From positions 1-64,000 of IMG/VR virus record IMGVR_UViG_3300020579_000009: 64,000 nt of DNA. One strand, 5' to 3'. This DNA comes from a virus. A model generated the notes under the pieces. That model searched no databases, was not told the DNA's origin, and worked only from the letters and a program-made list of their open reading frames with translations. The position numbers were made by a program, and so were the translations under genes. Shown here piece by piece: positions 744-47,093 of the stretch (its first letter is position 1; each line of letters starts with the position of its first letter).

Positions 744-1130
744 ATGAGACCTAGAAGGGCATTTCCTACCATCGCTTTGCTGATTCCGCTGATGCTGGCG
801 GGCTGCGCGGCGCGGCCTATCCATCCCGGCGCTGCCAATTCCTACGACTCTAACGCTTACGACGCGCTGATTGTGGCGCACAGCGTCATTGAGACTACCA
901 AGACCGATTTGGCGAACAATGCCTTCCCCGCATCTATCGCCGGAAACGTCAAGACGGCGCTGAACGACCTGATACGCGGCTATGACGTGGCGCAGACAGC
1001 CTACACTGCTTACCACGCTTCGGCAGTAGTGGGCACGGCCACTCCCGCGCAATCGACAGCCCTGACCAACGCTCTCAACGACGTGAACAGCAAGACCGCC
1101 GCGCTCACAGCGGCAAAGGCGGGAAAATGA
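744..1130 (+). CDS. Lipoprotein, possibly lysis accessory or spanin-like
   Basis: Signal peptide with lipobox LAGC, helical Ala-rich mature part, AGGAG RBS. Confidence 0.7.
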   Translation: MRPRRAFPTIALLIPLMLAGCAARPIHPGAANSYDSNAYDALIVAHSVIETTKTDLANNAFPASIAGNVKTALNDLIRGYDVAQTAYTAYHASAVVGTATPAQSTALTNALNDVNSKTAALTAAKAGK

Positions 1131-1369
1131 GCACCACCGTAACCGTTACGACACCTAGCCCGAATCCTCCCGGCAGCAAGCTCCAAAGCATCCTCAGCAT
1201 CATCTCGCTGGTCTTGCAGGCGCTCACGGCCATTCCCGGTCTTGGTGTACCGATTGCCATTGAGCAGGCGTTCCAGAAGATTCTGACCAATGCGCTCGCG
1301 GCTTATCAGGCAGAGACTGGCCAGCCGCTCGACTTGAGCAAGATTCCGCAAGAAAGCCTAGTCCCTTGA
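1127..1369 (+). CDS. Small amphipathic/membrane protein coupled to the lipoprotein
   Basis: ATGA overlap; hydrophobic ILSIISLVLQALTAIPGLGV. Confidence 0.65.
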   Translation: MSTTVTVTTPSPNPPGSKLQSILSIISLVLQALTAIPGLGVPIAIEQAFQKILTNALAAYQAETGQPLDLSKIPQESLVP

Positions 1370-1372
1370 CAT

Positions 1373-1482
1373 TAGCGCCGAAGCGATGGCGCTAGGAAGG
1401 CAAGGCGCGTTGCCACGATGGAGTAGTTTGCAGTGACTTGGGGCCCTGCTGGGTTCGCGCTCGGTCAGGGCCTCCTCCTAAA
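1373..1482 (+). ncRNA. Conserved structured RNA motif, copy A
   Basis: Stem TAGCGCC/GGCGCTA with loop GAAGCGAT, GGAA, stem GGCAA/TTGCC, ACGA, third stem GGCCCTG/CAGGGCC, CCTCCTAAA. Covarying counterpart at 45821-45925. Confidence 0.55.
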
Positions 1483-1486
1483 GCCT

Positions 1487-1789
1487 ATGCTCCTAACAAC
1501 TCATCAACGCGAAGAGCTTTCACATCATGGCCTGTGGATACGCGAGGCTTGCGACAAGTGCCATAAGCTTCTGCTTTTGCCGTGGTGCTTCACGCGGCGC
1601 GGCGAGAAAGGCGTCTATTGCTCAAGGCTTTGCCGGGATGGGGAAGAGCGAGCGCCTATTGGAACGTGTGCGAATTGTGGGGCGAAGTTGGGCCCAGTAC
1701 GCAGAGGAACGAAGTTCTGTTCCGCGACCTGCCGGACACGCCAACACAGAAGTCCTAAACAGGGCGAAATTCGCGTTACTGGCCATTGA
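1487..1789 (+). CDS. Zinc-finger protein (CxxC...CSxxC repeats)
   Basis: CDKC, YCSRLC, CANC, FCSATC; ATG 1487 chosen as start. Confidence 0.55.
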   Translation: MLLTTHQREELSHHGLWIREACDKCHKLLLLPWCFTRRGEKGVYCSRLCRDGEERAPIGTCANCGAKLGPVRRGTKFCSATCRTRQHRSPKQGEIRVTGH

Positions 1790-1827: not shown

Positions 1828-2304
1828 ATGGACACACAATCTGAGGCAAAACTGGCGGAAGTTCACCCTGAACTGGCAAGGCGTATCGAGCAGCTAGCCG
1901 CTTTGCTTTCCTTCCCGCTCATCGTGACTTGTGGCTTGCGAAGCTGGGCGGCTCAGGACACGCTCTTTGCTCAAGGAAGAACTACCCCCGGCCCGGTAGT
2001 GACGAATGCCAGAGGCGGATGGTCGATGCACCAGTTTGGGCTCGCCGTCGACGTGGCTCCCACGGACGGACATAGCGTGGATTGGAATGGCAAAGACGCC
2101 AAGTGGGAAGAGATTCTAGCGAAGGCTCCGAGCGTAGGCTTGGCGGAAGGCGCAACGTGGCGGACGTTCCCCGACGAGCCGCACCTTTATCCACAGGAGA
2201 TTCCGCCAAACCCCGATGACACCCTGCGCTACACCTTCAAAGAAGGCGGCATGGCCGCAGTCAACGCGTGGGCCGATGCCCTGATGGGGATTACCAGCGA
2301 CTAG
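1828..2304 (+). CDS. Endolysin, M15 family (L-Ala-D-Glu peptidase-like)
   Basis: LRSWAAQDTLFAQGRT, SMHQFGLAVD (SxHxxGxAxD) and DEPH motifs. Confidence 0.9.
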   Translation: MDTQSEAKLAEVHPELARRIEQLAALLSFPLIVTCGLRSWAAQDTLFAQGRTTPGPVVTNARGGWSMHQFGLAVDVAPTDGHSVDWNGKDAKWEEILAKAPSVGLAEGATWRTFPDEPHLYPQEIPPNPDDTLRYTFKEGGMAAVNAWADALMGITSD

Positions 2305-13802: not shown

Positions 13803-16427
13803 CTATCTCCCTACGATACCTGTATACGCTACTTCGTACCCGCGCAGCTCATAAAATCCCGGCCCGGACGGGAAAGTACATCCAATCTGAAACCTTCTCC
13901 CCTTCACTGGCCTGAATCCGCCGAACTTGAATTTAGCAGGGGAGTATTCGAGAAACAATGGATTTGAGTTGCTATCCACGCCGGGAATGAGATTTGTGGT
14001 CAGTGGATTCACCCCAATGACGAACCTATCGTCATCAAAGGCATTCACCGCCCAAGCCCATCCCTGCGAAGCAAGGTTGTTCGGAATCTGATTAGTGAGT
14101 GCCCGCATCCATTCGAAGGTCTTAATCATGTGCGGATCTTCGTTGCCGAAGGCATGAAGCGTTACGCCGGGAGTAGGAACGCTGCGCTCCGCCGAAATCG
14201 TGAAATAGCTGGGCTGCCAATCCACGTCTGTAATCAAGTCCACGTCGCCAACAGACAGGTGATTCGTGGAGTTCCCATCGTAGGACGTGACGATGCTCTC
14301 GCAGTTGATGTCGTACTGATACCAAGTCGGCGCATTGGTCGCCATGTCGAAGGTGAAATAGCTGGGCTGACCATTGGAAGCAAGAAGGTCAAGGTCGAGC
14401 AGAAGCAGTTTGTTGTTGAAAGTTGAAGAATCAAGAGCAATGGCAAGGGCTAGCCAGGAACGGTCGCCTTTCTTATAGAAACTCATTCTGGCGAATTGCA
14501 ATCGTGCTCCGTTGATACGGTTGAGCACGTCCTGAACGGGCTTGCCTACGTTCTTTGGCGCGTAATGGTCGGTGAAAAGCCAGACTTCCCGGTCGGAGGA
14601 AAGCCACATCGCTCCAAGCGGAGTTACTGCTGTAGCATAAGGCGAAGCACAACCAATCTTATAAGGGAGCCTCTGAATCGTCGCCGCAAGCTGCGCTGGA
14701 TTTGCAATAGTGTTGTCACTGAGAAGCCCCGTCAATTTGTACATGTCCTGACGGTTTGACCAGATGATGAGCCCGGTTGGGAGATTCGCCATGCCGTTAA
14801 GTTGCCCGTCACCCAAAGGCATCGTCACTGTGTTCAGCGGAGAGAAGCATTCTGGCGGCTGGCCGATGACTGTAGCTTCGATGTTGCTATAGAAAAAGGT
14901 TTGGAGATTAGCCACGACTCCATAAACGAGCACTCGCCCTTGGTAGTCTTGACAGAATGCCCCAATGGGCGGAGGAACATTGTAAATTTGCGCAATCTCG
15001 CTGGTGAATGGAGGGTTGGGCGGTTCGGAGTTGGCGGTATCGTTGAATTCCAGTCCCGCAAGCAACGCTGTATTCCCTATCGGGTTGAAGGCATTCCTGC
15101 CAATTAGGAAATAAACTGGCTGGCCATCGCCAGTAGCATAGAGTTTTACGAATCCCTGTGCTGGAGAGGAATTTAGTAATTGCGGATCGTAAACCTGAAA
15201 ACGCGCTCCGCCAATTCCACCGCCGTTATAAGGGAGATGCAATGTCATGGAAGTGGCGCTAGCAACCGCCGATATGTAATTCCCTGTAAAGGCGGAACCT
15301 TCAACCCAAATAGCCCGTCCAATCCATGCCGATGTGAATGCGGTGCCGACTCCGGTAACGGTGGCGTTGCCGTTCACGACTGTAACCGTTCCGACTTCCA
15401 CAAGGTCTATGGTTCCGGTTTGGGACGCATACTTCACGAATTGCGAAGCGGGGGAAGGGGCGGAAGTCTCTCCATTTACATCTGCCTCCCAAGCCCATTG
15501 ATAGGAACGCCCGACTGTTTTGGTGATACCTAGCGTCACCGTTCCAGCTCCGCTCGTAGCTGCTGGCCCTACTTGCACGAAGGTAAAAGTCGAAGCTCCG
15601 GTCTTGGTAATTTGAACTGCTACACCTGCCGCTGTGTTGAAAGTGGTATCGGTCACGCCTGAGATGCCAACATAAACCCCCGTCACCATTCCGGCTGGTA
15701 GTGGCGCGGTCGTGGTAATGGTCACGATGTTATTTGCGCGTACTGCTCCTGTGGGAGCGGCCTGAATCGTTGCCGTAGAGCCAGCTACGAGCGTGATGCT
15801 TGGAGAAACGTCAGGCGCATCCAATCCCCAAAACATGAAGAGAGGAGAAGCCTCGGCAAGCGTGTTTGGCACAGTCTTAGAACGAAATTGCCCATTTGTC
15901 TCATAAATAGCATTTCCGATTCTGGTTCTCATCCACGGGCCGTTAAGAACGGAAAGCGCAAAAGGGAAGTCCGCACTAGGAGATTGACCATTAAACCTAT
16001 CCCATACTTCATCGAGTGGCTGTACTAGTGTTGCGGCAACCATTCCAGAAATAGAAAGCGGGTTATTACAAATCCAACGCGGCCAGAATGCGTCATCATT
16101 ATTGTCGAAGAGTACGCGGTTAACCAAAGTCGCCGGGGAACCAAATCCAGTCGGGTCCAGGAAGGAATACATGGAAATAATACGATTGCCATTGGCCGTG
16201 AATCCACTAGCGGTGGAGTTGAAAAATGGTGCCCAGCGAGCCCTGCGAATCGTGCCGAACTGCCCGGCGTAGACCTGCGAGGAAGCCGCCCAGAATTGCG
16301 GCGTAAGCAAGTCGGGACTGGTGTAGCCGTTATATCCTCCTACAAGGGAATCCAGCGTAAGGACTCGCGGCCCTGTCTCGTTCTGTGTCTGCTCGAACTC
16401 CGCTGGTGCTCTGCGTCTCTCGGCCAT
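13803..16427 (-). CDS. Tail tubular/DNA stabilisation protein (P22 gp10 / T7 gp12-like)
   Basis: 874 aa, beta-propeller-like (IGCASPYATAVTPLGAMWLS, KNVGKPVQD); follows the adaptor. Confidence 0.75.
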   Translation of the reverse strand: MAERRRAPAEFEQTQNETGPRVLTLDSLVGGYNGYTSPDLLTPQFWAASSQVYAGQFGTIRRARWAPFFNSTASGFTANGNRIISMYSFLDPTGFGSPATLVNRVLFDNNDDAFWPRWICNNPLSISGMVAATLVQPLDEVWDRFNGQSPSADFPFALSVLNGPWMRTRIGNAIYETNGQFRSKTVPNTLAEASPLFMFWGLDAPDVSPSITLVAGSTATIQAAPTGAVRANNIVTITTTAPLPAGMVTGVYVGISGVTDTTFNTAAGVAVQITKTGASTFTFVQVGPAATSGAGTVTLGITKTVGRSYQWAWEADVNGETSAPSPASQFVKYASQTGTIDLVEVGTVTVVNGNATVTGVGTAFTSAWIGRAIWVEGSAFTGNYISAVASATSMTLHLPYNGGGIGGARFQVYDPQLLNSSPAQGFVKLYATGDGQPVYFLIGRNAFNPIGNTALLAGLEFNDTANSEPPNPPFTSEIAQIYNVPPPIGAFCQDYQGRVLVYGVVANLQTFFYSNIEATVIGQPPECFSPLNTVTMPLGDGQLNGMANLPTGLIIWSNRQDMYKLTGLLSDNTIANPAQLAATIQRLPYKIGCASPYATAVTPLGAMWLSSDREVWLFTDHYAPKNVGKPVQDVLNRINGARLQFARMSFYKKGDRSWLALAIALDSSTFNNKLLLLDLDLLASNGQPSYFTFDMATNAPTWYQYDINCESIVTSYDGNSTNHLSVGDVDLITDVDWQPSYFTISAERSVPTPGVTLHAFGNEDPHMIKTFEWMRALTNQIPNNLASQGWAWAVNAFDDDRFVIGVNPLTTNLIPGVDSNSNPLFLEYSPAKFKFGGFRPVKGRRFQIGCTFPSGPGFYELRGYEVAYTGIVGR

Positions 16428-17398
16428 TAGCGTGACCCGCTAGGAGAAACGGTGTAGCGCAAAAGCCTTTGCGGGAAAGGGCGTACCCTTGCTGGTTCCT
16501 GCCGCTGGCGAACCATGATACTGTCGCGCATGGAGTCCAGCTCCGTCTTGGCTAGAGCCGCCCAAGAAGTGAAGCGCGAATCATTGCCCGGCGTGGACAT
16601 GAAGTTACGCGTGGCGATGGTCGAAATGACGTTGTGATGCCCATCTGGAATATCAGGAACGGAACAAAGATTGTAGTTCGTAAGCGCCGGGATTACAGGG
16701 TTTGGAGCGGTCAAGAGTGTCAAAGCCGTGTCGCTGGCAATAGCTTTTACCCGGAACGTTTGGTTGTTCGCACCTTGATTGAAAACCAGTTCCATCCCGA
16801 TGTCGGTGTCCTGGTCATTGCCGGGCAGGGCGGAAATAAAATCAGCGGGGACTACTTGCGTGAAGTTCGTCCCTGCTCCCGTGATTGCTGTTCCGGCGCT
16901 CGACACCGTGCCGTTGAACACGATGGCCAGCGGCATGAAAATGAAGCTGTAGGTCACTTCAATCTGCGTGCCTACTGGCAGAGGTTGAGCAAAGAGCACG
17001 CTGAACTTGCTGAATAGAATGTAATAGTATGGCCCGCTAGTGGCCGCTATCTGCGGAGTGATTTGCTGCTGCGCCTGAAAGTCATCGTCGTTCCAGCTGC
17101 GCGGCTGACCCTTGCTCCAGTTTGTGTCGCCGGGCTGAAGGATGCGGAGGCGGTCAATCTGGAAGGCGCGAAGCGAAACAGCGGTATTGAGATTCCCGTT
17201 AAAGTTAGCGAGGAAGTCAAACTCTACCGCTGAGGTTGCAACGGTTACGATTTTCTGGTCGGTGAAATAGCTGTCCTCAAGCTGGAGGATATAATCCCAA
17301 GTCTCTTTGTACGCAGCGTTTACTTCGTCCAGATACTCGGAAATATCGTAGGACGGATTACGCCGCTGCACTCGCTGGCAAAGAGAAAGGGCATTCAC
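16427..17398 (-). CDS. Head-tail adaptor protein
   Basis: EYLDEVNAAY..W and PDIPDGHHNVI adaptor-type helices; ortholog of 62207..63220. Confidence 0.7.
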   Translation of the reverse strand: MNALSLCQRVQRRNPSYDISEYLDEVNAAYKETWDYILQLEDSYFTDQKIVTVATSAVEFDFLANFNGNLNTAVSLRAFQIDRLRILQPGDTNWSKGQPRSWNDDDFQAQQQITPQIAATSGPYYYILFSKFSVLFAQPLPVGTQIEVTYSFIFMPLAIVFNGTVSSAGTAITGAGTNFTQVVPADFISALPGNDQDTDIGMELVFNQGANNQTFRVKAIASDTALTLLTAPNPVIPALTNYNLCSVPDIPDGHHNVISTIATRNFMSTPGNDSRFTSWAALAKTELDSMRDSIMVRQRQEPARVRPFPQRLLRYTVSPSGSR

Positions 17399-20141: not shown

Positions 20142-21434
20142 TTAGTAGCCAGCCGGAACGCTCAAGCCAACGACTGCGGTGTTGGCGTTCGGGAAATAGG
20201 CTCCTAGGTTTCCACGGAACTCCAGATAGGCCACAAATGCATCGTTGTAGCCGCCCGTGGTAGTCGGCACGCGGTTCAGAATCGAACCTGTCCGGTCATC
20301 AAAGCTAAGTTTCCGCGCCGTGACCTTGAGCAAGGATTCCTTGTTCACGAAATACAGTGTGTCGCGCGGGGCGTCCGTGTCGATGACCCAGGGGATGCCT
20401 TCAAACTCATAGGCGGTGTAGCCCAAGTCCATCTTCATGGCCGTGCCGTTGAACTGCTTGAGCGTCCAGCCCATGTCGGCATAGGCGTGAAGTTGGCTGC
20501 CGTGGCTCCAGATGCGGAGCTTCGACAGGTCAACCGCGCCGCGAACTTGCTGAATCGTCCAGATGCCGCGCCGGAGGAAATCACGGGTTAGGGCAGGCGT
20601 CCCGGCCAGCGTAATGACGTTGGCGTTGTACTGCGGATTGGCTGCCCGGTTAATGTTCTGGAAGTTGGCCGCGAACGTGCCGTTGTCGACGATGACCTTA
20701 AGGCCCGCCATCGCCTTGTTGAAAGAGCCCGAAGAAATGATGGCATCGCCTGATACTAGTACGCCAGCCGCAGAAGCCGGGCCGACTACGATAGTGACCG
20801 CGCCGCCTGCCGCCGTCAGGTTCGTTGTGCCAGCCACGCCTAAAAGGTTCGAGACGGACACGATGGTTGCCGTGCCCTTGACGGTGTTGACCGTGCCAGT
20901 AAGGAAGTCCACTGTCAGGCCGGGACGCAAATAACGCGCACCGTCTCCCAACCCCGTCACGTCCACAGTGGTGTTGGCAACCGTCGAGAGGGTGACGCCA
21001 GCGCCGACTTTGGCAAGAGTGCCGGAGCCGTCGAGGAAGGAATACCAGTTCAGTTCCTTGATGGCATCCACGACGCCGTTGCGGACGTTAAAGGCAAGGG
21101 ACTTCACATAGTTGGTAGCGTCTCCGCCACCGCCTGCGTCGAGCGCCGCCCCGGTAAACTGAATGGGCTTGACGTAGCTGTAGAAGCCCACGATGGCGCG
21201 GTTCACGCGCTGGGAGTCGCCAGCCGGAAGCGCTCCGCCATCGCCATACCATGCGTGCTGGCCGTTACCTGCCATGTGGACGGGGATTTCTAGTCCACGG
21301 TTCGAAATCATGGTGCCCGCGCCTTCGAATACATCGTTCCAAAGGACGGCGGCGGTATTGAACTGTTTTTCTACGCGAGGATTGAAAACGACCTTGAAAA
21401 TCGGGTCTGCTGCGGACAAATCGAATTGTGCCAC
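20142..21434 (-). CDS. Major capsid protein
   Basis: 430 aa after the scaffold; GGALP, FEGIPWVIDTDAPRDTLYFVN and terminal beta motifs typical of HK97-fold coats. Confidence 0.85.
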   Translation of the reverse strand: MAQFDLSAADPIFKVVFNPRVEKQFNTAAVLWNDVFEGAGTMISNRGLEIPVHMAGNGQHAWYGDGGALPAGDSQRVNRAIVGFYSYVKPIQFTGAALDAGGGGDATNYVKSLAFNVRNGVVDAIKELNWYSFLDGSGTLAKVGAGVTLSTVANTTVDVTGLGDGARYLRPGLTVDFLTGTVNTVKGTATIVSVSNLLGVAGTTNLTAAGGAVTIVVGPASAAGVLVSGDAIISSGSFNKAMAGLKVIVDNGTFAANFQNINRAANPQYNANVITLAGTPALTRDFLRRGIWTIQQVRGAVDLSKLRIWSHGSQLHAYADMGWTLKQFNGTAMKMDLGYTAYEFEGIPWVIDTDAPRDTLYFVNKESLLKVTARKLSFDDRTGSILNRVPTTTGGYNDAFVAYLEFRGNLGAYFPNANTAVVGLSVPAGY

Positions 21435-26187: not shown

Positions 26188-26505
26188 TCAGTTAAGGGCA
26201 TGGTTCACGGGCTCAGGAATGTCGTCGCTGACCGATTGATTCAGTTCGCGCTGCATGGCGTGAAGGGCTTTGGTGATTTTCAGAATGAATTGCCCTTCGA
26301 GGAAAACAGGGGTGAAGTTCGCGGCGTCGATGAAGTCGGTGTCTTTCTTGTGGAGAAGTAGCCGCCAGCGGTCTTGGCCGAAAACCGGGAAAAGCAACTG
26401 GCCATTCGAGCCGTGATATTCGTAGCCTTCGGGGGGCAAGAGGACTTCAGCGAAAAGCGTTTCTACTAGTTCATCGGGCGTGGGCGGCGGAGGTGCCATG
26501 TTCAT
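26188..26505 (-). CDS. Hypothetical protein
   Basis: ATGA overlap with TerL. Confidence 0.55.
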   Translation of the reverse strand: MNMAPPPPTPDELVETLFAEVLLPPEGYEYHGSNGQLLFPVFGQDRWRLLLHKKDTDFIDAANFTPVFLEGQFILKITKALHAMQRELNQSVSDDIPEPVNHALN

Positions 26506-27989
26506 TGCGGAGGAATCTCCCTAGCCTGTTGTACTCTTAAATCCTTAATTCTCAAAGTGGAAAATCCGTGGCGGCGCAAAGGTTCCTTTTCCTTGTGTTC
26601 CTCGACGCGCTGCCAGTAGAGCCGTGAGGCTACGTCAAGCTTTGGATTCTCCCACTTTTTCGGCAAAACAAGTTCGCTCGGAAGCGGCCTAAAGGTGTGA
26701 ATCAGGTAGCGGATAGCGTCAGGACAATGGGAATTGGCGTGGCTCGGCTCGTTTTTCGGATTACCGGATTTGTCTTTTGCCCATTTATAAGTCGTTAGTT
26801 CGCGGATGGTGTTGGTGCAGGACTTGGCTACGAAGTAGCGCGGAGAGCCTTCTTTTCCGGTGAAAGGATGCTTTAGGCGAGGGTCGATGTGCATGTATTG
26901 GGCGACTTTGAAAAGGCCGGGTTTCACGTCCTTGATGGCTGCTTGGCCGGAGATGCCGTAATCTTCCAGCTCAATCGCCGCCGCTCTTTGGGCATAGTCG
27001 TAGGCCATGCCTTCGAGCTGACGGCCATCCATTTTTTCGTGGAACTGTTCGGCAATGGGTTTTACGCGGAGTTCCGAGCCGTAGATTTCGGCAAACTGGT
27101 AGAGATTGCCGTCCGGGGCCAAGCTCGCTATGGGGATAGCCCAAGGATCGCCTTCTTCGCCGCCGCCAACGTCCGTGCCGACAAAAACAGGCCATTCTAC
27201 GGGCGGTCTCTGGTGCCCGGAAAACACTTCCCAATCCCGCGCGTCATCCCAGACGTGGGTATTATCGCCAAATTCCTTATAAATCAGGTCGGTAAAGTCG
27301 GTGAAACTTCCGTTTACGAAGCGGTCGTACCAGTCCGGTGGATAGAGGCATTTTCTGCGGATGTGATATTCCTCCGGCAGAAAGACGTTCTCCATCGAAG
27401 TCGCGCCGATGCCAAGATTCAGGCTTTTCATTTCCGCCGAGCGGTCGGGGTCGAAGAAATACCGCCACTGGTAGTCGTGCCCGGCTGGGTTTGAGGCGCT
27501 ACGGTAGATTCTTCGTGAAACGTTTTTGCGTCTCAGGCGTCCGGTAAGCATCAGGAACACTTCTTCGGAGACTTCGCTGGCCTCATCTACCCCGGCAAAG
27601 CTCAAATTTAAGCTGCGGATGTGGCCTGTCACTTTAGGGTCGGAAATATCGAGATGCCGGAAAATGACTTGATGGCCGTTAGAGAATGTCCAAGTCTTTT
27701 TGGCTTCCGCCCAATCGCCCATGCTAGATGGCACTAGTTCAAGGAACGTTTTCATGGTGGTGGATTCAAGGGCTGGCATATTGAGGCGTCCGAGGAGGGA
27801 AAAACCGTTCGGCTCGATAACGGCGTTGCAGATACAGGACGTACAGAGGGAGACGGATTTGCTTGCGCCTTCTCCGCCGACGAAGGCTACTGCGAAATAC
27901 TTCGAGGTTACGAATTCCTTGGCTTTTGGTAACTTTTCAAGTCCCGCGATTGCGTCAGCGAGTTCTAGTTCTCCGGTGTAGAAGCCCAC
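26502..27989 (-). CDS. terL: Terminase large subunit
   Basis: Walker A GGEGASKS, Walker B FAGVDEA, coupling motif ASNP, nuclease VGTDVG and HCPDAIRY. Confidence 0.92.
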   Translation of the reverse strand: MGFYTGELELADAIAGLEKLPKAKEFVTSKYFAVAFVGGEGASKSVSLCTSCICNAVIEPNGFSLLGRLNMPALESTTMKTFLELVPSSMGDWAEAKKTWTFSNGHQVIFRHLDISDPKVTGHIRSLNLSFAGVDEASEVSEEVFLMLTGRLRRKNVSRRIYRSASNPAGHDYQWRYFFDPDRSAEMKSLNLGIGATSMENVFLPEEYHIRRKCLYPPDWYDRFVNGSFTDFTDLIYKEFGDNTHVWDDARDWEVFSGHQRPPVEWPVFVGTDVGGGEEGDPWAIPIASLAPDGNLYQFAEIYGSELRVKPIAEQFHEKMDGRQLEGMAYDYAQRAAAIELEDYGISGQAAIKDVKPGLFKVAQYMHIDPRLKHPFTGKEGSPRYFVAKSCTNTIRELTTYKWAKDKSGNPKNEPSHANSHCPDAIRYLIHTFRPLPSELVLPKKWENPKLDVASRLYWQRVEEHKEKEPLRRHGFSTLRIKDLRVQQAREIPPQ

Positions 27990-44240: not shown

Positions 44241-44984
44241 ATGCTCATGGCGAACACAAAAGTAGGACTTGCGTACCGCAGCACTCGGCGGAATTGGGTA
44301 AAACTGTGGACGCATGAATGGTTGCGCGGCACTTCGCGGTTTGAGTTGAATCCAGCGCAGCGGAGCGCGTTTGTGGACTTACTGGCGATGGCCGGAGACT
44401 CAAAAGTACCGGGGAAGGTCTGCGCTGGAATTGATGTTGATGGGTCGATTCTCGGCTTTCCGCTGGATTACATTGCTGGCGTTCTGACGATGGATAAGCC
44501 GTATCTCAGGGACACGCTATTCCTTCTTGAAAAGCAGGGAAGAATTGAGACTTCACTGGACGCCAGAGGTAACTCGATTATCACTCTCACAAGCTGGGTG
44601 AAATATCAGTCGGAGTATCATCGCCAGAAAAGTTACAGGTCAAACTCCGATGAGGTGACAGGCAAAGTTACAAGTGAAACTCCTGCGAAGTTACCAGTAG
44701 AGGGAGAAGTAGAGGTAGATGGAGAAATAGAAGAAGAAACATCTTTTGGTGTGTTTTGGGATTTGTATCCTCGCAAAGTCGGAAAGGCAAAGGCAACTGT
44801 CCTGTGGAAGAAACTAAGCTCTAGACCGGAGCTTCAAAAGAACGCCTTGCATGGGCTGAAACTTTGGAAACAATCCGAGCAATGGAACCGCGACGACGGA
44901 AAGTACATCCCGTACTGTTCTACTTTTCTGGCGCGAGAGCAATGGGCCGATGAGCCGTGGACTGGAGCTTTTGAAGGGCGCTAG
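44241..44984 (+). CDS. Phage replication initiator (replisome-organiser-like)
   Basis: WVKLW..W...S, LLAMAG, WVKYQ, FGVFWDLYPRKVGK..A...W, YIPY.STFL..E.W. Confidence 0.8.
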   Translation: MLMANTKVGLAYRSTRRNWVKLWTHEWLRGTSRFELNPAQRSAFVDLLAMAGDSKVPGKVCAGIDVDGSILGFPLDYIAGVLTMDKPYLRDTLFLLEKQGRIETSLDARGNSIITLTSWVKYQSEYHRQKSYRSNSDEVTGKVTSETPAKLPVEGEVEVDGEIEEETSFGVFWDLYPRKVGKAKATVLWKKLSSRPELQKNALHGLKLWKQSEQWNRDDGKYIPYCSTFLAREQWADEPWTGAFEGR

Positions 44985-45009
44985 GCGCTGCGGGAAGGTT
45001 GGCGCGGCG
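44883..45009 (+). repeat. 127-bp exact direct repeat, copy 2
   Basis: Identical to 1-127; covers the 3' end of the replication gene. Confidence 0.95.
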
Positions 45010-45092: not shown

Positions 45093-45536
45093 ATGAGACC
45101 TAGAAGGGCATTTCCGACCATCGCTTTGCTGATTCCGCTGATGCTGCTGACGCAGGCTTACGCTTGCACGGGTGGCGTGGTTCACAAAGTCACCGTGGCG
45201 CAGCACGACTTCCGCATCGCGGTACAGGCGTTTCAGGACACGGAGATTGCGCTCTACAACCAGGGCGGAGTTATCTCACCGGACACGCACCGGGAGATTC
45301 AGGAATACATCGGCAAAGTGGCGCTGGCGGGCGTAGACCTAGACCAAGCCTTAGCCTCAAACGCTCCCACTTCGACGCTCAAGACCAAGCTCGACAGCAT
45401 CATGGCCTTACTTGACCAGCTCAATACGCAAGGGCTTCTGGGAGTGAAGAGCCAGAACGCCAAACTTGCGCTGACCTCTGCTCTGCTTGCCATAAAGGGC
45501 ATTGTCGCTGGCGCGGAAGCGTGGGTGACGCAATGA
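45093..45536 (+). CDS. Exported/lipoprotein-like protein (unit B)
   Basis: First 18 aa identical to 744..1130, then AYAC; helical mature part. Confidence 0.7.
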   Translation: MRPRRAFPTIALLIPLMLLTQAYACTGGVVHKVTVAQHDFRIAVQAFQDTEIALYNQGGVISPDTHREIQEYIGKVALAGVDLDQALASNAPTSTLKTKLDSIMALLDQLNTQGLLGVKSQNAKLALTSALLAIKGIVAGAEAWVTQ

Positions 45537-45742: not shown

Positions 45743-45820
45743 GTTTCGCGCTAAGGGGCTTGGCGCGATAGGACGGCTCCCCACCTTCCCCAAGAGGCTA
45801 ACTAGGGCCGTCCGACTTTT

Positions 45821-45925
45821 GCGCTCGACACGATGGGCGCTGGAAAGGTGAGCGTTACCACGACATGCCCAAGGGAGCGGAACGTTTCAATGGCTTTGAA
45901 CCCGCCGCTCCCTGGGCCTCCTAAA
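45821..45925 (+). ncRNA. Conserved structured RNA motif, copy B
   Basis: GCGCTC-GACACGAT-GGGCGC, GGAAA, GGTGA/TTACC, ACGA, long third stem, CCTCCTAAA. Confidence 0.55.
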
Positions 45926-45935
45926 AGGAAAACTT

Positions 45936-46190
45936 ATGAAACGCAGAGCGGAAGAAGCGGAAGTCATAGTACGGCTGGACTATCTGGACAAGCAGGCGCA
46001 TATCTGCGTAGGCTCTTGGCCGCGCATGGCAGCCAAAATGAAGAAGATGTACGGAGAGAGCATGGACAAGGGCGTTCGCAACCAGTCCCAGCGATGGCTG
46101 ATTCCGCTCCGGTGTATCAGTTTCCGTTCCTTGAAGCCCACCACAAGGCCTAACGTCGTTCAACCACGCCGTTCAGCAACGCATTCCTGA
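45936..46190 (+). CDS. Hypothetical protein
   Basis: AAGGA RBS; 84 aa. Confidence 0.55.
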   Translation: MKRRAEEAEVIVRLDYLDKQAHICVGSWPRMAAKMKKMYGESMDKGVRNQSQRWLIPLRCISFRSLKPTTRPNVVQPRRSATHS

Positions 46191-46199
46191 GATTATCTC

Positions 46200-46679
46200 G
46201 TGGAACTGGTACTCCAACGCCTGACGCTGACGCCAAACTCCACCGAAGGGGAACTTCGGGGCGGGGGCAAGGTTTGGGACACGCTGGAGCTGCCTGTGAA
46301 AGACGGTCTACCCGGTTCCGCCATTCCACCGGGGAAGTTTTTAGTGGTGCTTAGTCAGTCGCCTAAATTTAGCCGCAGTACGGATTCTTGGGTGATGCAA
46401 TACGCGATGGAGATTCCGCATGTGCTTGGGATTCCGAGCAGGTCAAATATCCTCATCCATTGGGGCAATTCCGCCGTAGACACGGAGGGCTGCGTCCTCG
46501 TGGGCGACACGGCGGCACAGGACTACATTGGGCAGAGCCGGAAAGCCTTTTCTGAACTTTGGGCGCTTCTCAAGGCAGCAAAAGACGCAGGCGAAGCTAT
46601 CAGCCTGACCGTGCAAGGCGGGATACCGCAAACGCCTAATACCTCTGGCGACGTAGCCGATGCTCTGGCGAGCGACTGA
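46200..46679 (+). CDS. DUF5675-family putative endolysin (L,D-transpeptidase-like)
   Basis: L.R....STEGEL, TLELP, AIPPG.F, SPKF, RSNILIHWGN..DTEGCVLVG. Confidence 0.85.
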   Translation: MELVLQRLTLTPNSTEGELRGGGKVWDTLELPVKDGLPGSAIPPGKFLVVLSQSPKFSRSTDSWVMQYAMEIPHVLGIPSRSNILIHWGNSAVDTEGCVLVGDTAAQDYIGQSRKAFSELWALLKAAKDAGEAISLTVQGGIPQTPNTSGDVADALASD

Positions 46680-46715
46680 TGCCAGTGGAATGGGTATTCG
46701 CGGGGCTAGGCGTGG

Positions 46716-47093
46716 CTATGCTGCTTCTGCTGGCCTACCTGCTCGACCGCGCGAGAAGGCGCTAGGCTGTGGACGGTACATCGTCCCCTTCTGCCCAGCG
46801 TCTCTAAGATTGTCCGCTTGAGTTCCAAGGAAAAGATGATTCGGATTCACGCATTGCCGAATATCGCAATGATGAAGAACCTGTTGGCCTGTCGGGATAT
46901 CTCCACGATGAATCATCCAAGAGAATTTGTGAGCATAGATATTCCCCTTGCCCACAATTAGATGACCGTATCCTTTGGCACTTTTAGAGCCAATCCAAAA
47001 CCAACAGGAATCCGTCTTGTAGACCTTCTGCCAGAAACGCTCTTCCGCAGTGCCGCGAAAACCTGTTTTCGGGCCGGGTTTCATGCAACGCAT
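46716..47093 (-). CDS. HNH homing endonuclease
   Basis: CWFWIG..GYG, YAHKFSW..HRG.IP, VLHHCD..CVNPNHLFLGT.ADN. Confidence 0.9.
   Translation of the reverse strand: MRCMKPGPKTGFRGTAEERFWQKVYKTDSCWFWIGSKSAKGYGHLIVGKGNIYAHKFSWMIHRGDIPTGQQVLHHCDIRQCVNPNHLFLGTQADNLRDAGQKGTMYRPQPSAFSRGRAGRPAEAA

Follow-up and report, generated by a model that had tools for sequence, protein, structure and literature searches.

An unclassified hairpin-rich element between the early-type and lysis genes of two sibling soil phage units

In the T4 lysozyme gene e, in the lambda S 'sdi' structure and in the com-mom pair of phage Mu, a leader hairpin sequesters the ribosome-binding site or the start codon. Other stem-loops lie between the cistrons of polycistronic mRNAs, where T7 RNase III sites and the hairpins of Rhodobacter puf and E. 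coli malEFG serve as stabilisers or processing sites, and such intercistronic hairpins can give differential expression inside one operon. Transcript hairpins can also address RNA polymerase, as in the nut sites of lambda and P22, made up of boxA and boxB, and in put of HK022, in which two stem-loops act in cis on the polymerase without a phage protein. Here we describe an element that occurs once in each of two related phage genome units on a single soil contig, directly ahead of the lysis genes. The element is real, unclassified and absent from RNA databases, and is best filed with phage mRNA leaders or intercistronic structures.

Two sibling phage units and the setting of the element

The window, by which we mean the whole stretch of DNA analysed, covers the initial 64 kb of a 78.7-kb viral contig of soil origin in IMG/VR. 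Comparing the window with itself revealed a pair of collinear, mosaic phage genome units, displaced from each other by about 44.9 kb: the sequence at 1-127 recurs exactly at 44883-45009 (127 bp), the remaining homologous stretches are 66-85% identical, and many segments are without similarity. The contig consists of related yet distinct phage genome units joined head to tail via this exact 127-bp repeat, which could be either an assembly join at k-mer length or a true tandem; because two joined units are present, the CheckV rating of '100% complete' spans more than one genome. The tail proteins, like the other virion genes, are encoded on the minus strand, and the plus strand carries early-type genes (ERF recombinase, replication initiator, GNAT), then the element, then the lysis genes. 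Given that the virion genes occupy the opposite strand, the lysis genes are appended to the end of the early-side operon. ARAGORN found 0 tRNA or tmRNA genes and no tRNA-like element in the window. The genes relevant to the setting are as follows.

20142-21434, minus strand: major head protein
26502-27989, minus strand: terminase
744-1130 and 45093-45536: lipoprotein-like genes
1127-1369, plus strand: gene upstream of copy A, member of a conserved 75-84-aa family
1487-1789, plus strand: zinc-ribbon ORF (two fingers) downstream of copy A
1828-2304, plus strand: M15-type endolysin (peptidase) downstream of copy A
45936-46190, plus strand: 84-aa ORF downstream of copy B, unrelated to the zinc-ribbon ORF of A
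46200-46679, plus strand: DUF5675 (C82-like peptidase) candidate endolysin downstream of copy B
46679-46765: 28-aa ORF MPVEWVFAGLGVAMLLLLAYLLDRARRR, overlapping the DUF5675 gene at TGATG

Both units share the order lipoprotein gene, small gene, element, small ORF, endolysin, and both copies therefore lie at the junction of the early-side operon and the lysis cassette. An earlier note on this DNA had called the flanking genes unrelated, which holds for the small ORFs adjacent to the element, between which BLAST found no similarity, but not one step upstream, where the two lipoprotein-like genes encode an identical 18-residue signal peptide (DNA 97% identical over 77 nt) ahead of mature parts that have almost completely diverged. 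The family of the gene at 1127-1369 numbers 32 homologues with the motif PIAIEQAFQKILTNALAAYQAETGQPIDL.KIP, has no Pfam or PHROG match and is usually found elsewhere in soil phages (loci L297-L310) directly ahead of holin-like or endolysin genes; it may be a lysis-cassette member that has gone unrecognised. In unit B, the 28-aa ORF has the appearance of a very small membrane protein belonging to the lysis cassette. Across nine relatives, the DUF5675 protein keeps a His...Cys motif, NILIHWGN...TEGC.LVG, unchanged; DUF5675 proteins have been described as C82-like peptidase lysins (2026 preprint, bioRxiv 10.64898/2026.04.11.717860).

Two further features of these cassettes recurred. In these soil phages, cysteine-rich, zinc-ribbon-like small ORFs stand immediately 5' of M15 or DUF5675 endolysin genes not only in the window (1487-1789) but also at L002 (about 2815-2998), L135 (about 1300-1450) and L147 (just upstream of 1501). 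The DUF5675 gene of many viral contigs (e.g. L138, L147, L155, L163, L170 and L191) is no more than about 0.5-1 kb away from a contig end, suggesting that often no other gene separates it from a genome terminus or an assembly break.

Anatomy, folding and conservation of the two copies

Each copy is an untranslated stretch containing three hairpins, P1 to P3, followed by a tail that leads into the next start codon. We resolved the two copies into the following parts.

1372-1486, plus strand: copy A, whole element, about 110 bases, three hairpins, untranslated
1372-1395, plus strand: P1 of A, 8-bp stem UUAGCGCC/GGCGCUAG with 8-nt loop GAAGCGAU
1396-1418, plus strand: linker GGAA, P2 and ACGA of A
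1399-1414, plus strand: P2 of A, GGCAA/UUGCC
1415-1418, plus strand: conserved ACGA of A
1440-1474, plus strand: P3 of A, 15 pairs with one bulge
1474-1482, plus strand: tail CCTCCTAAA of A
1474-1489, plus strand: pyrimidine/A-rich tail CCUCCUAAAGCCU of A, running into the AUG (1487) of the zinc-ribbon ORF
45746-45768, plus strand: extra hairpin 0a, in B only
45771-45813, plus strand: extra hairpin 0b, in B only
45821-45935, plus strand: copy B, whole element, three hairpins, untranslated
45821-45840, plus strand: P1 of B, GCGCUC/GGGCGC with loop GACACGAU
45841-45863, plus strand: linker UGGAAA, P2 and ACGA of B
45847-45859, plus strand: P2 of B, GGUGA/UUACC
45860-45863, plus strand: conserved ACGA of B
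45867-45917, plus strand: P3 of B, 13 outer pairs and an inner stem, loop UCAAUGGC
45917-45925, plus strand: tail CCTCCTAAA of B
45917-45938, plus strand: tail CCUCCUAAAAGGAAAACUU of B, running into the AUG (45936) of the 84-aa ORF

The sequences and coordinates given in the earlier note proved exact for both copies, and the two additional hairpins it had placed upstream of B are present at 45746-45768 and 45771-45813. P1 of A begins 3 nt past the stop codon of the upstream gene (1367-1369), the P1 loops (GAAGCGAU and GACACGAU) are 8 nt long in both copies, and CCTCCTAAA occurs exactly twice in the window, once per copy. The element is non-coding, conserved between the siblings and composed of P1, a weak P2 and a very stable P3, and its 3' end is a pyrimidine tract followed by A residues, directly against a start codon predicted to be open.

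P3 folds at -25.6 kcal/mol in A (z -3.83) and at -30.4 kcal/mol in B (z -4.12), with 0 of 200 shuffles as stable in either copy. P1 reaches -12.8 kcal/mol in A (z -2.86; 3 of 200 shuffles as good) and -10 kcal/mol in B (z -2.83). P2 was no more stable than its shuffles (z about -0.9; -0.92 in A), and copy A taken as an entire element gave a z of only -1.3 to -1.7. Fold energies were lower on the plus than on the minus strand in both A (-50.2 versus -38.4 kcal/mol) and B (-46.7 versus -43.1 kcal/mol). Furthermore, P3 of A contains several G.U pairs that exist on the plus strand only, and P1 and P2 of B contain U.G and G.U pairs whose counterparts in duplex DNA or on the other strand would be mismatched. 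Together, the G.U pairs and the fold energies favour an RNA read from the plus strand.

Equilibrium folding gave a mean unpaired probability over -15 to +12 of the downstream start of 0.47 in A and 0.67 in B, the latter being the most open among 55 gene starts in the window, and the -60 to -16 segment ahead of these starts is among the most paired. With both starts predicted to be open, we rejected a masking leader of the T4 gene e or Mu mom type, which would sequester the start codon or ribosome-binding site. Neither downstream start has a Shine-Dalgarno sequence, as is the case for many other genes of this phage. Both copies also permit alternative pairings, of GGAAGG with CCUCC and of the P1 5' arm with the P2 loop region (GCGCC:GGCGC in A, GCGCUC:GAGCGU in B); because palindromic GCGC and short tracts are involved, we treat these as leads only.

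We built a covariance model from the P1-P2 core of copy A alone (R1) and searched both strands (128 kb). Copy B was the best non-self match at 21 bits (E about 8e-4), and the next match scored 14 bits. As R1 picks out B and CCTCCTAAA is found only twice in the window, the resemblance between A and B is real and beyond chance. In a structure-aware alignment the P1-P2 core is 74% identical between the copies, similar to homologous coding DNA elsewhere in the units (66-85%) even though the adjacent ORFs have been replaced; the longest exact match is 9 nt.

The earlier note had held that the unpaired elements are kept and the stems change in a compensatory manner. The same alignment shows the reverse, with stems more conserved (19 of 24 paired columns identical) than loops (18 of 31 unpaired columns). 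Eight of the 12 pairs are invariant, two show a one-sided change, B leaves one unpaired, and the sole two-sided change is a P2 pair that is C-G in A and U-A in B, where P2 also has one G.U pair. This single compensatory pair carries no statistical support, with 225 of 500 shuffles performing as well; the absence of significant covariation, which the note had itself named as telling against its proposal, is thus the result of the two-copy shuffle test. The apparent swaps in P1 arise from a register shift in the alignment, as the GCGC/GCGC core is conserved in both copies and B has one extra base per arm, forming a U.G pair. More generally, such a shift can give two sibling copies the look of covariation when their core is a GC-rich palindrome.

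The indels that separate A from B are +1, +1 and -3 nt, and the two single-base ones fall on opposite arms of the P1 stem, where they add a base pair and would break any reading frame, which favours an RNA stem that is non-coding. The start-to-start distance of the GCGC cores is 14 nt in A and 16 nt in B. Because only two copies of the P1-P2 core are available, as siblings on one contig, and covariation is nil, common descent alone could account for the similarity of A and B.

A hairpin at 16425-16456, CATTAGCG-N5-CGCTAGGA, has 16 nt in common with the P1 stem and its flanks and scores 14 bits with R1 (E 0.07). On the minus strand it coincides exactly with the TAATG stop/start junction between two tail genes. 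Its likeness to P1 is probably a coincidence.

Relatives, known families and signals

R1 found no further P1-P2 core when run on 88 loci surrounding DUF5675 or M15 genes and on the full length of ten related viral contigs. A stringent pattern scan of IMG/VR and GTDB genomes returned no other core, a looser one returned chance matches in coding DNA only, and blastn against GenBank phages likewise returned only chance matches. Loci anchored on the M15, lipoprotein, DUF5675 (viral, genome and metagenome collections) and upstream gene families had no P1-P2, and relatives of the M15 endolysin and of the upstream gene family were without the element altogether. The earlier note had staked its proposal on further homologues in a covariance-model search, and none of the P1-P2 core came to light. 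Close variants of the element do occur in other soil runs, and soil metatranscriptome contigs from two runs overlap it, one identical over 1185-1416 and one variant over 1390-1658, from which neither transcription nor strand can be deduced.

A broader resemblance emerged ahead of DUF5675 endolysin genes, where five or six soil phages carry related hairpin leaders. These leaders (L134, L138, L139, L010 and, in part, L135 and L223) are 110-210 nt long, rich in hairpins and directly precede the DUF5675 gene, or in L010 a short ORF upstream of it. They begin right past the upstream stop codon (UAAGAGUUUGGC...) and close at the 3' end with a stable hairpin, a pyrimidine tract, a run of A and the AUG; the pre-start hairpins of L134, L135, L138, L139 and L010 have z values of -2.2 to -5.2. 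Hairpins 0a and 0b of B match the leaders of L134, L138 and L139 in position and outline, and the P3 loop UCAAUGGC of B is common to L134 and L010. A covariance model of P3 and tail of B (R2) gave as its top non-self matches the equivalent hairpins of L134 and L010, in the right place at E about 1, and did not detect P3 of A. Since R2 misses P3 of A, the 'shared P3' amounts to a shared kind of structure plus a 9-nt tail and is not a demonstrable homology. Judged on these sequence comparisons, P1-P2 is peculiar to A and B, and P3 with its tail has an outline in common with the DUF5675 leaders.

In L138, L139, L010 and B, bases just past the upstream stop can pair with bases just before the start, which is not so in A. 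This helix shows a G-C to U-A exchange between L139 and L138; 7 of 500 shuffles were as good for L138 and for L139 each, and the signal is weaker for the others. Comparison of L138 (1335-1503) with L139 (1323-1503) also brought out unpaired blocks of strong conservation (UGUGUUAAAUCCA, GACACCACGU and, in P3, the loop GUCAUCC) and a possible 6-11-bp helix between the stop region UAAGAGUUU and the pre-start bases AAACUCUUA with one compensatory exchange. A scan with the L138/L139 linker pattern gave one extra match, a chance match in coding DNA.

The element falls outside the described RNA families. Rfam 15 gave 0 matches at gathering score over the full window, and at E<=10 around both copies only chance-level fragments appeared (9-16 bits against thresholds of 44-80); the related DUF5675 leaders had no Rfam match either. 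The scan agrees with the earlier statement that the family is not recognised, and the riboswitch and ribozyme that had been offered as options find no resemblance in any known class. In or adjoining either copy there is no plus-strand intrinsic terminator-like site, P3 being followed by CCUCCUAAA, and no sigma-70-type promoter. The boxA pattern YGCTCTTWA (<=1 mismatch) is missing upstream of either P1 and occurs in total at chance level. Several early ORFs had no Pfam match; N-like proteins are not recognisable by sequence.

Various further candidates were considered and set aside. A sigma-54 promoter, assessed by eye, has its GG/GC spacing off by one in A and is absent in B; an ECF-like promoter, GGAA-N16/17-ACGA, fits A and B by eye, yet no sigma gene was found; and a repeated late-promoter motif was likewise rejected. 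Against a conserved uORF or leader peptide, the small ORFs vary in length and sequence, and none in A ends at the tail UAA. A minus-strand small ORF behind UUUAGGAGG is present in L138 and L139 but has, by eye, no start codon in A or B. Copy A is flanked by a 19-nt imperfect direct repeat (1353-1371 and 1480-1498, 74%), which we did not accept as a target-site duplication, its exact 8-mer seed being expected by chance.

Readings of the element and comparison with known systems

What stands of the functional RNA proposed in the earlier note is a conserved, non-coding, hairpin-rich plus-strand element just 5' of the lysis genes; covariation, a terminator and a known class do not. Control of expression toward the endolysin can reasonably be inferred from position alone. 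Our preferred reading, held tentatively and at slightly under an even chance, is that the element is a lineage-specific, cis-acting structured leader, or intercistronic UTR, that tunes lysis-gene expression post-transcriptionally. The element is located where the early, replication-side operon reaches the lysis genes, and its hairpins would act after transcription, setting the amount of lysis product made from read-through transcripts. P1, after the stop codon, and P3, before the start codon, would most likely be barriers to RNA decay or processing sites, by which the stability and translation of the lysis cistrons could be uncoupled from the upstream genes, and translation could begin in the open, A-rich start region with no need of a Shine-Dalgarno sequence. 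More speculatively, the competing purine/pyrimidine pairings could form a switch. We infer this stability or processing mechanism as a generic proposal, and the element may be only a lineage-specific structured mRNA leader.

Among the alternatives, a spacer with no specific function, GC-rich and left over from the common ancestor of the units, with hairpins incidental to composition and recent descent, would not be expected to show P3-type hairpins at a matching position in seven phages whose stem sequences are unrelated, with z as low as -5.2, nor two single-base P1 indels that keep pairing, a strand-specific fold preference, or about the conservation of coding DNA despite replacement of both neighbouring ORFs. 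We consider this spacer unlikely though by no means negligible, as covariation is no better than in shuffles, loops have changed more than stems, P2 is no more stable than chance, A overall has a weak z, no collection searched held other copies, and relatives of the M15 endolysin and of the upstream family do without the element. The element could also work as DNA, with P1 (a 6-8-bp inverted repeat with an 8-bp spacer, preceded in A by a perfect TTGACA at 1366-1371) serving a late (lysis) promoter as its operator or activator site, or with the whole element as a recombination linker at a module boundary. The 2-bp difference in distance between the GCGC half-sites, which an RNA stem tolerates and a dimeric DNA binder does not, makes a DNA-level site very unlikely, as do the U.G and G.U pairs, mismatched once the sequence is duplex DNA or is read from the other strand, the lack of a sigma-70-like promoter in either copy and of TTGACA in B, and a longest exact A/B match of 9 nt, too short for a recombination linker.

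Two other readings assign the RNA a partner. A riboregulator recognised by a phage or host factor, with P1-P2 as the RNA target through which lysis read-through or expression is timed, might work by N/nut-like or put-like processive antitermination or through an RNA-binding translational regulator, and a factor common to both sibling phages would explain the same module before two different lysis cassettes. Both units retain the P1-P2 core between genes that differ from one unit to the other, in B this core sits midway in an L134-type leader, the early-to-lysis junction is a sensible place for timing control, and the P1 loops start with GAAG and GACA, which we take to be like the boxB loops of lambda and P22, a resemblance only. 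We nevertheless regard this as improbable: the loops have 8 nt and are not GNRA-like pentaloops, no boxA-like sequence lies upstream of either copy, there is one copy per genome unit and not one behind each early promoter, no terminator-like site follows, Pfam searches of early ORFs yielded no candidate factor, and ten related whole contigs held no homologues. A trans-acting small RNA was suggested by the single-stranded CCUCCUAAA tail, which after its stable hairpin resembles the anti-Shine-Dalgarno end of 16S rRNA and would, as a mimic of that 3' end, bind Shine-Dalgarno sequences. It is extremely unlikely, given that the tail runs directly into the start codon of the next ORF, that no repeated TTTAGGAGG-type leader or target occurs in the window and that strong Shine-Dalgarno sequences are missing from many genes of the phage; the anti-SD sRNA of the earlier proposal thus finds neither SD-like targets in the window nor a promoter or terminator of its own.

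Quite improbable, too, is a regulatory reading in which P1-P2, with ACGA and the purine linker, would be a new phage-specific riboregulator, a factor-bound module or conformational switch that times endolysin expression from an early-side operon and is portable between lysis cassettes of different enzyme types. Such a switch would use the alternative GGAAGG/CCUCC and P1-arm/P2-loop pairings. If the element does gate the lysis genes, it would represent an RNA-level lysis-timing device in uncultured soil phages, whose lysis genes are attached to the early-side operon instead of a late one, and a candidate new RNA family.

Set beside the described systems, the cis-acting leader that we prefer is like those of T4 e, lambda S sdi and Mu com-mom in being a stable, phage-specific hairpin structure in cis directly 5' of a lysis or late gene to which read-through transcription also extends. 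It is unlike them in that the starts are predicted to be open and have no Shine-Dalgarno sequence, and in that we identified no internal late promoter or activator protein. The cysteine-rich ORF followed by an endolysin also recalls com before mom, a likeness of layout and not a shown homology. With the T7 RNase III sites, puf and malEFG the element shares stable hairpins between cistrons, after a stop and before the next start; its P3 stems (13-15 bp), however, are shorter than classical RNase III substrates, and the conserved P1-P2 core and CCUCCUAAA tail are without counterpart there.

The nut sites of lambda and P22 and put of HK022 are similarly small, phage-specific transcript hairpins upstream of genes that need timing, and P1 and P2, adjacent hairpins 3-6 nt apart, appear put-like, a likeness of layout only. 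Unlike nut, the element has an 8-nt loop in place of a 5-nt GNRA-like one and no boxA; unlike both, it is a single copy far from early promoters, with no terminator following and no Rfam match. Finally, the DUF5675 leaders of L134, L138, L139 and L010, themselves undescribed, differ in that none has the P1-P2 core and P3 of A is not detectably homologous to theirs, but they share with the element the same succession of stop codon, hairpins, stable hairpin, pyrimidine/A tail and AUG.
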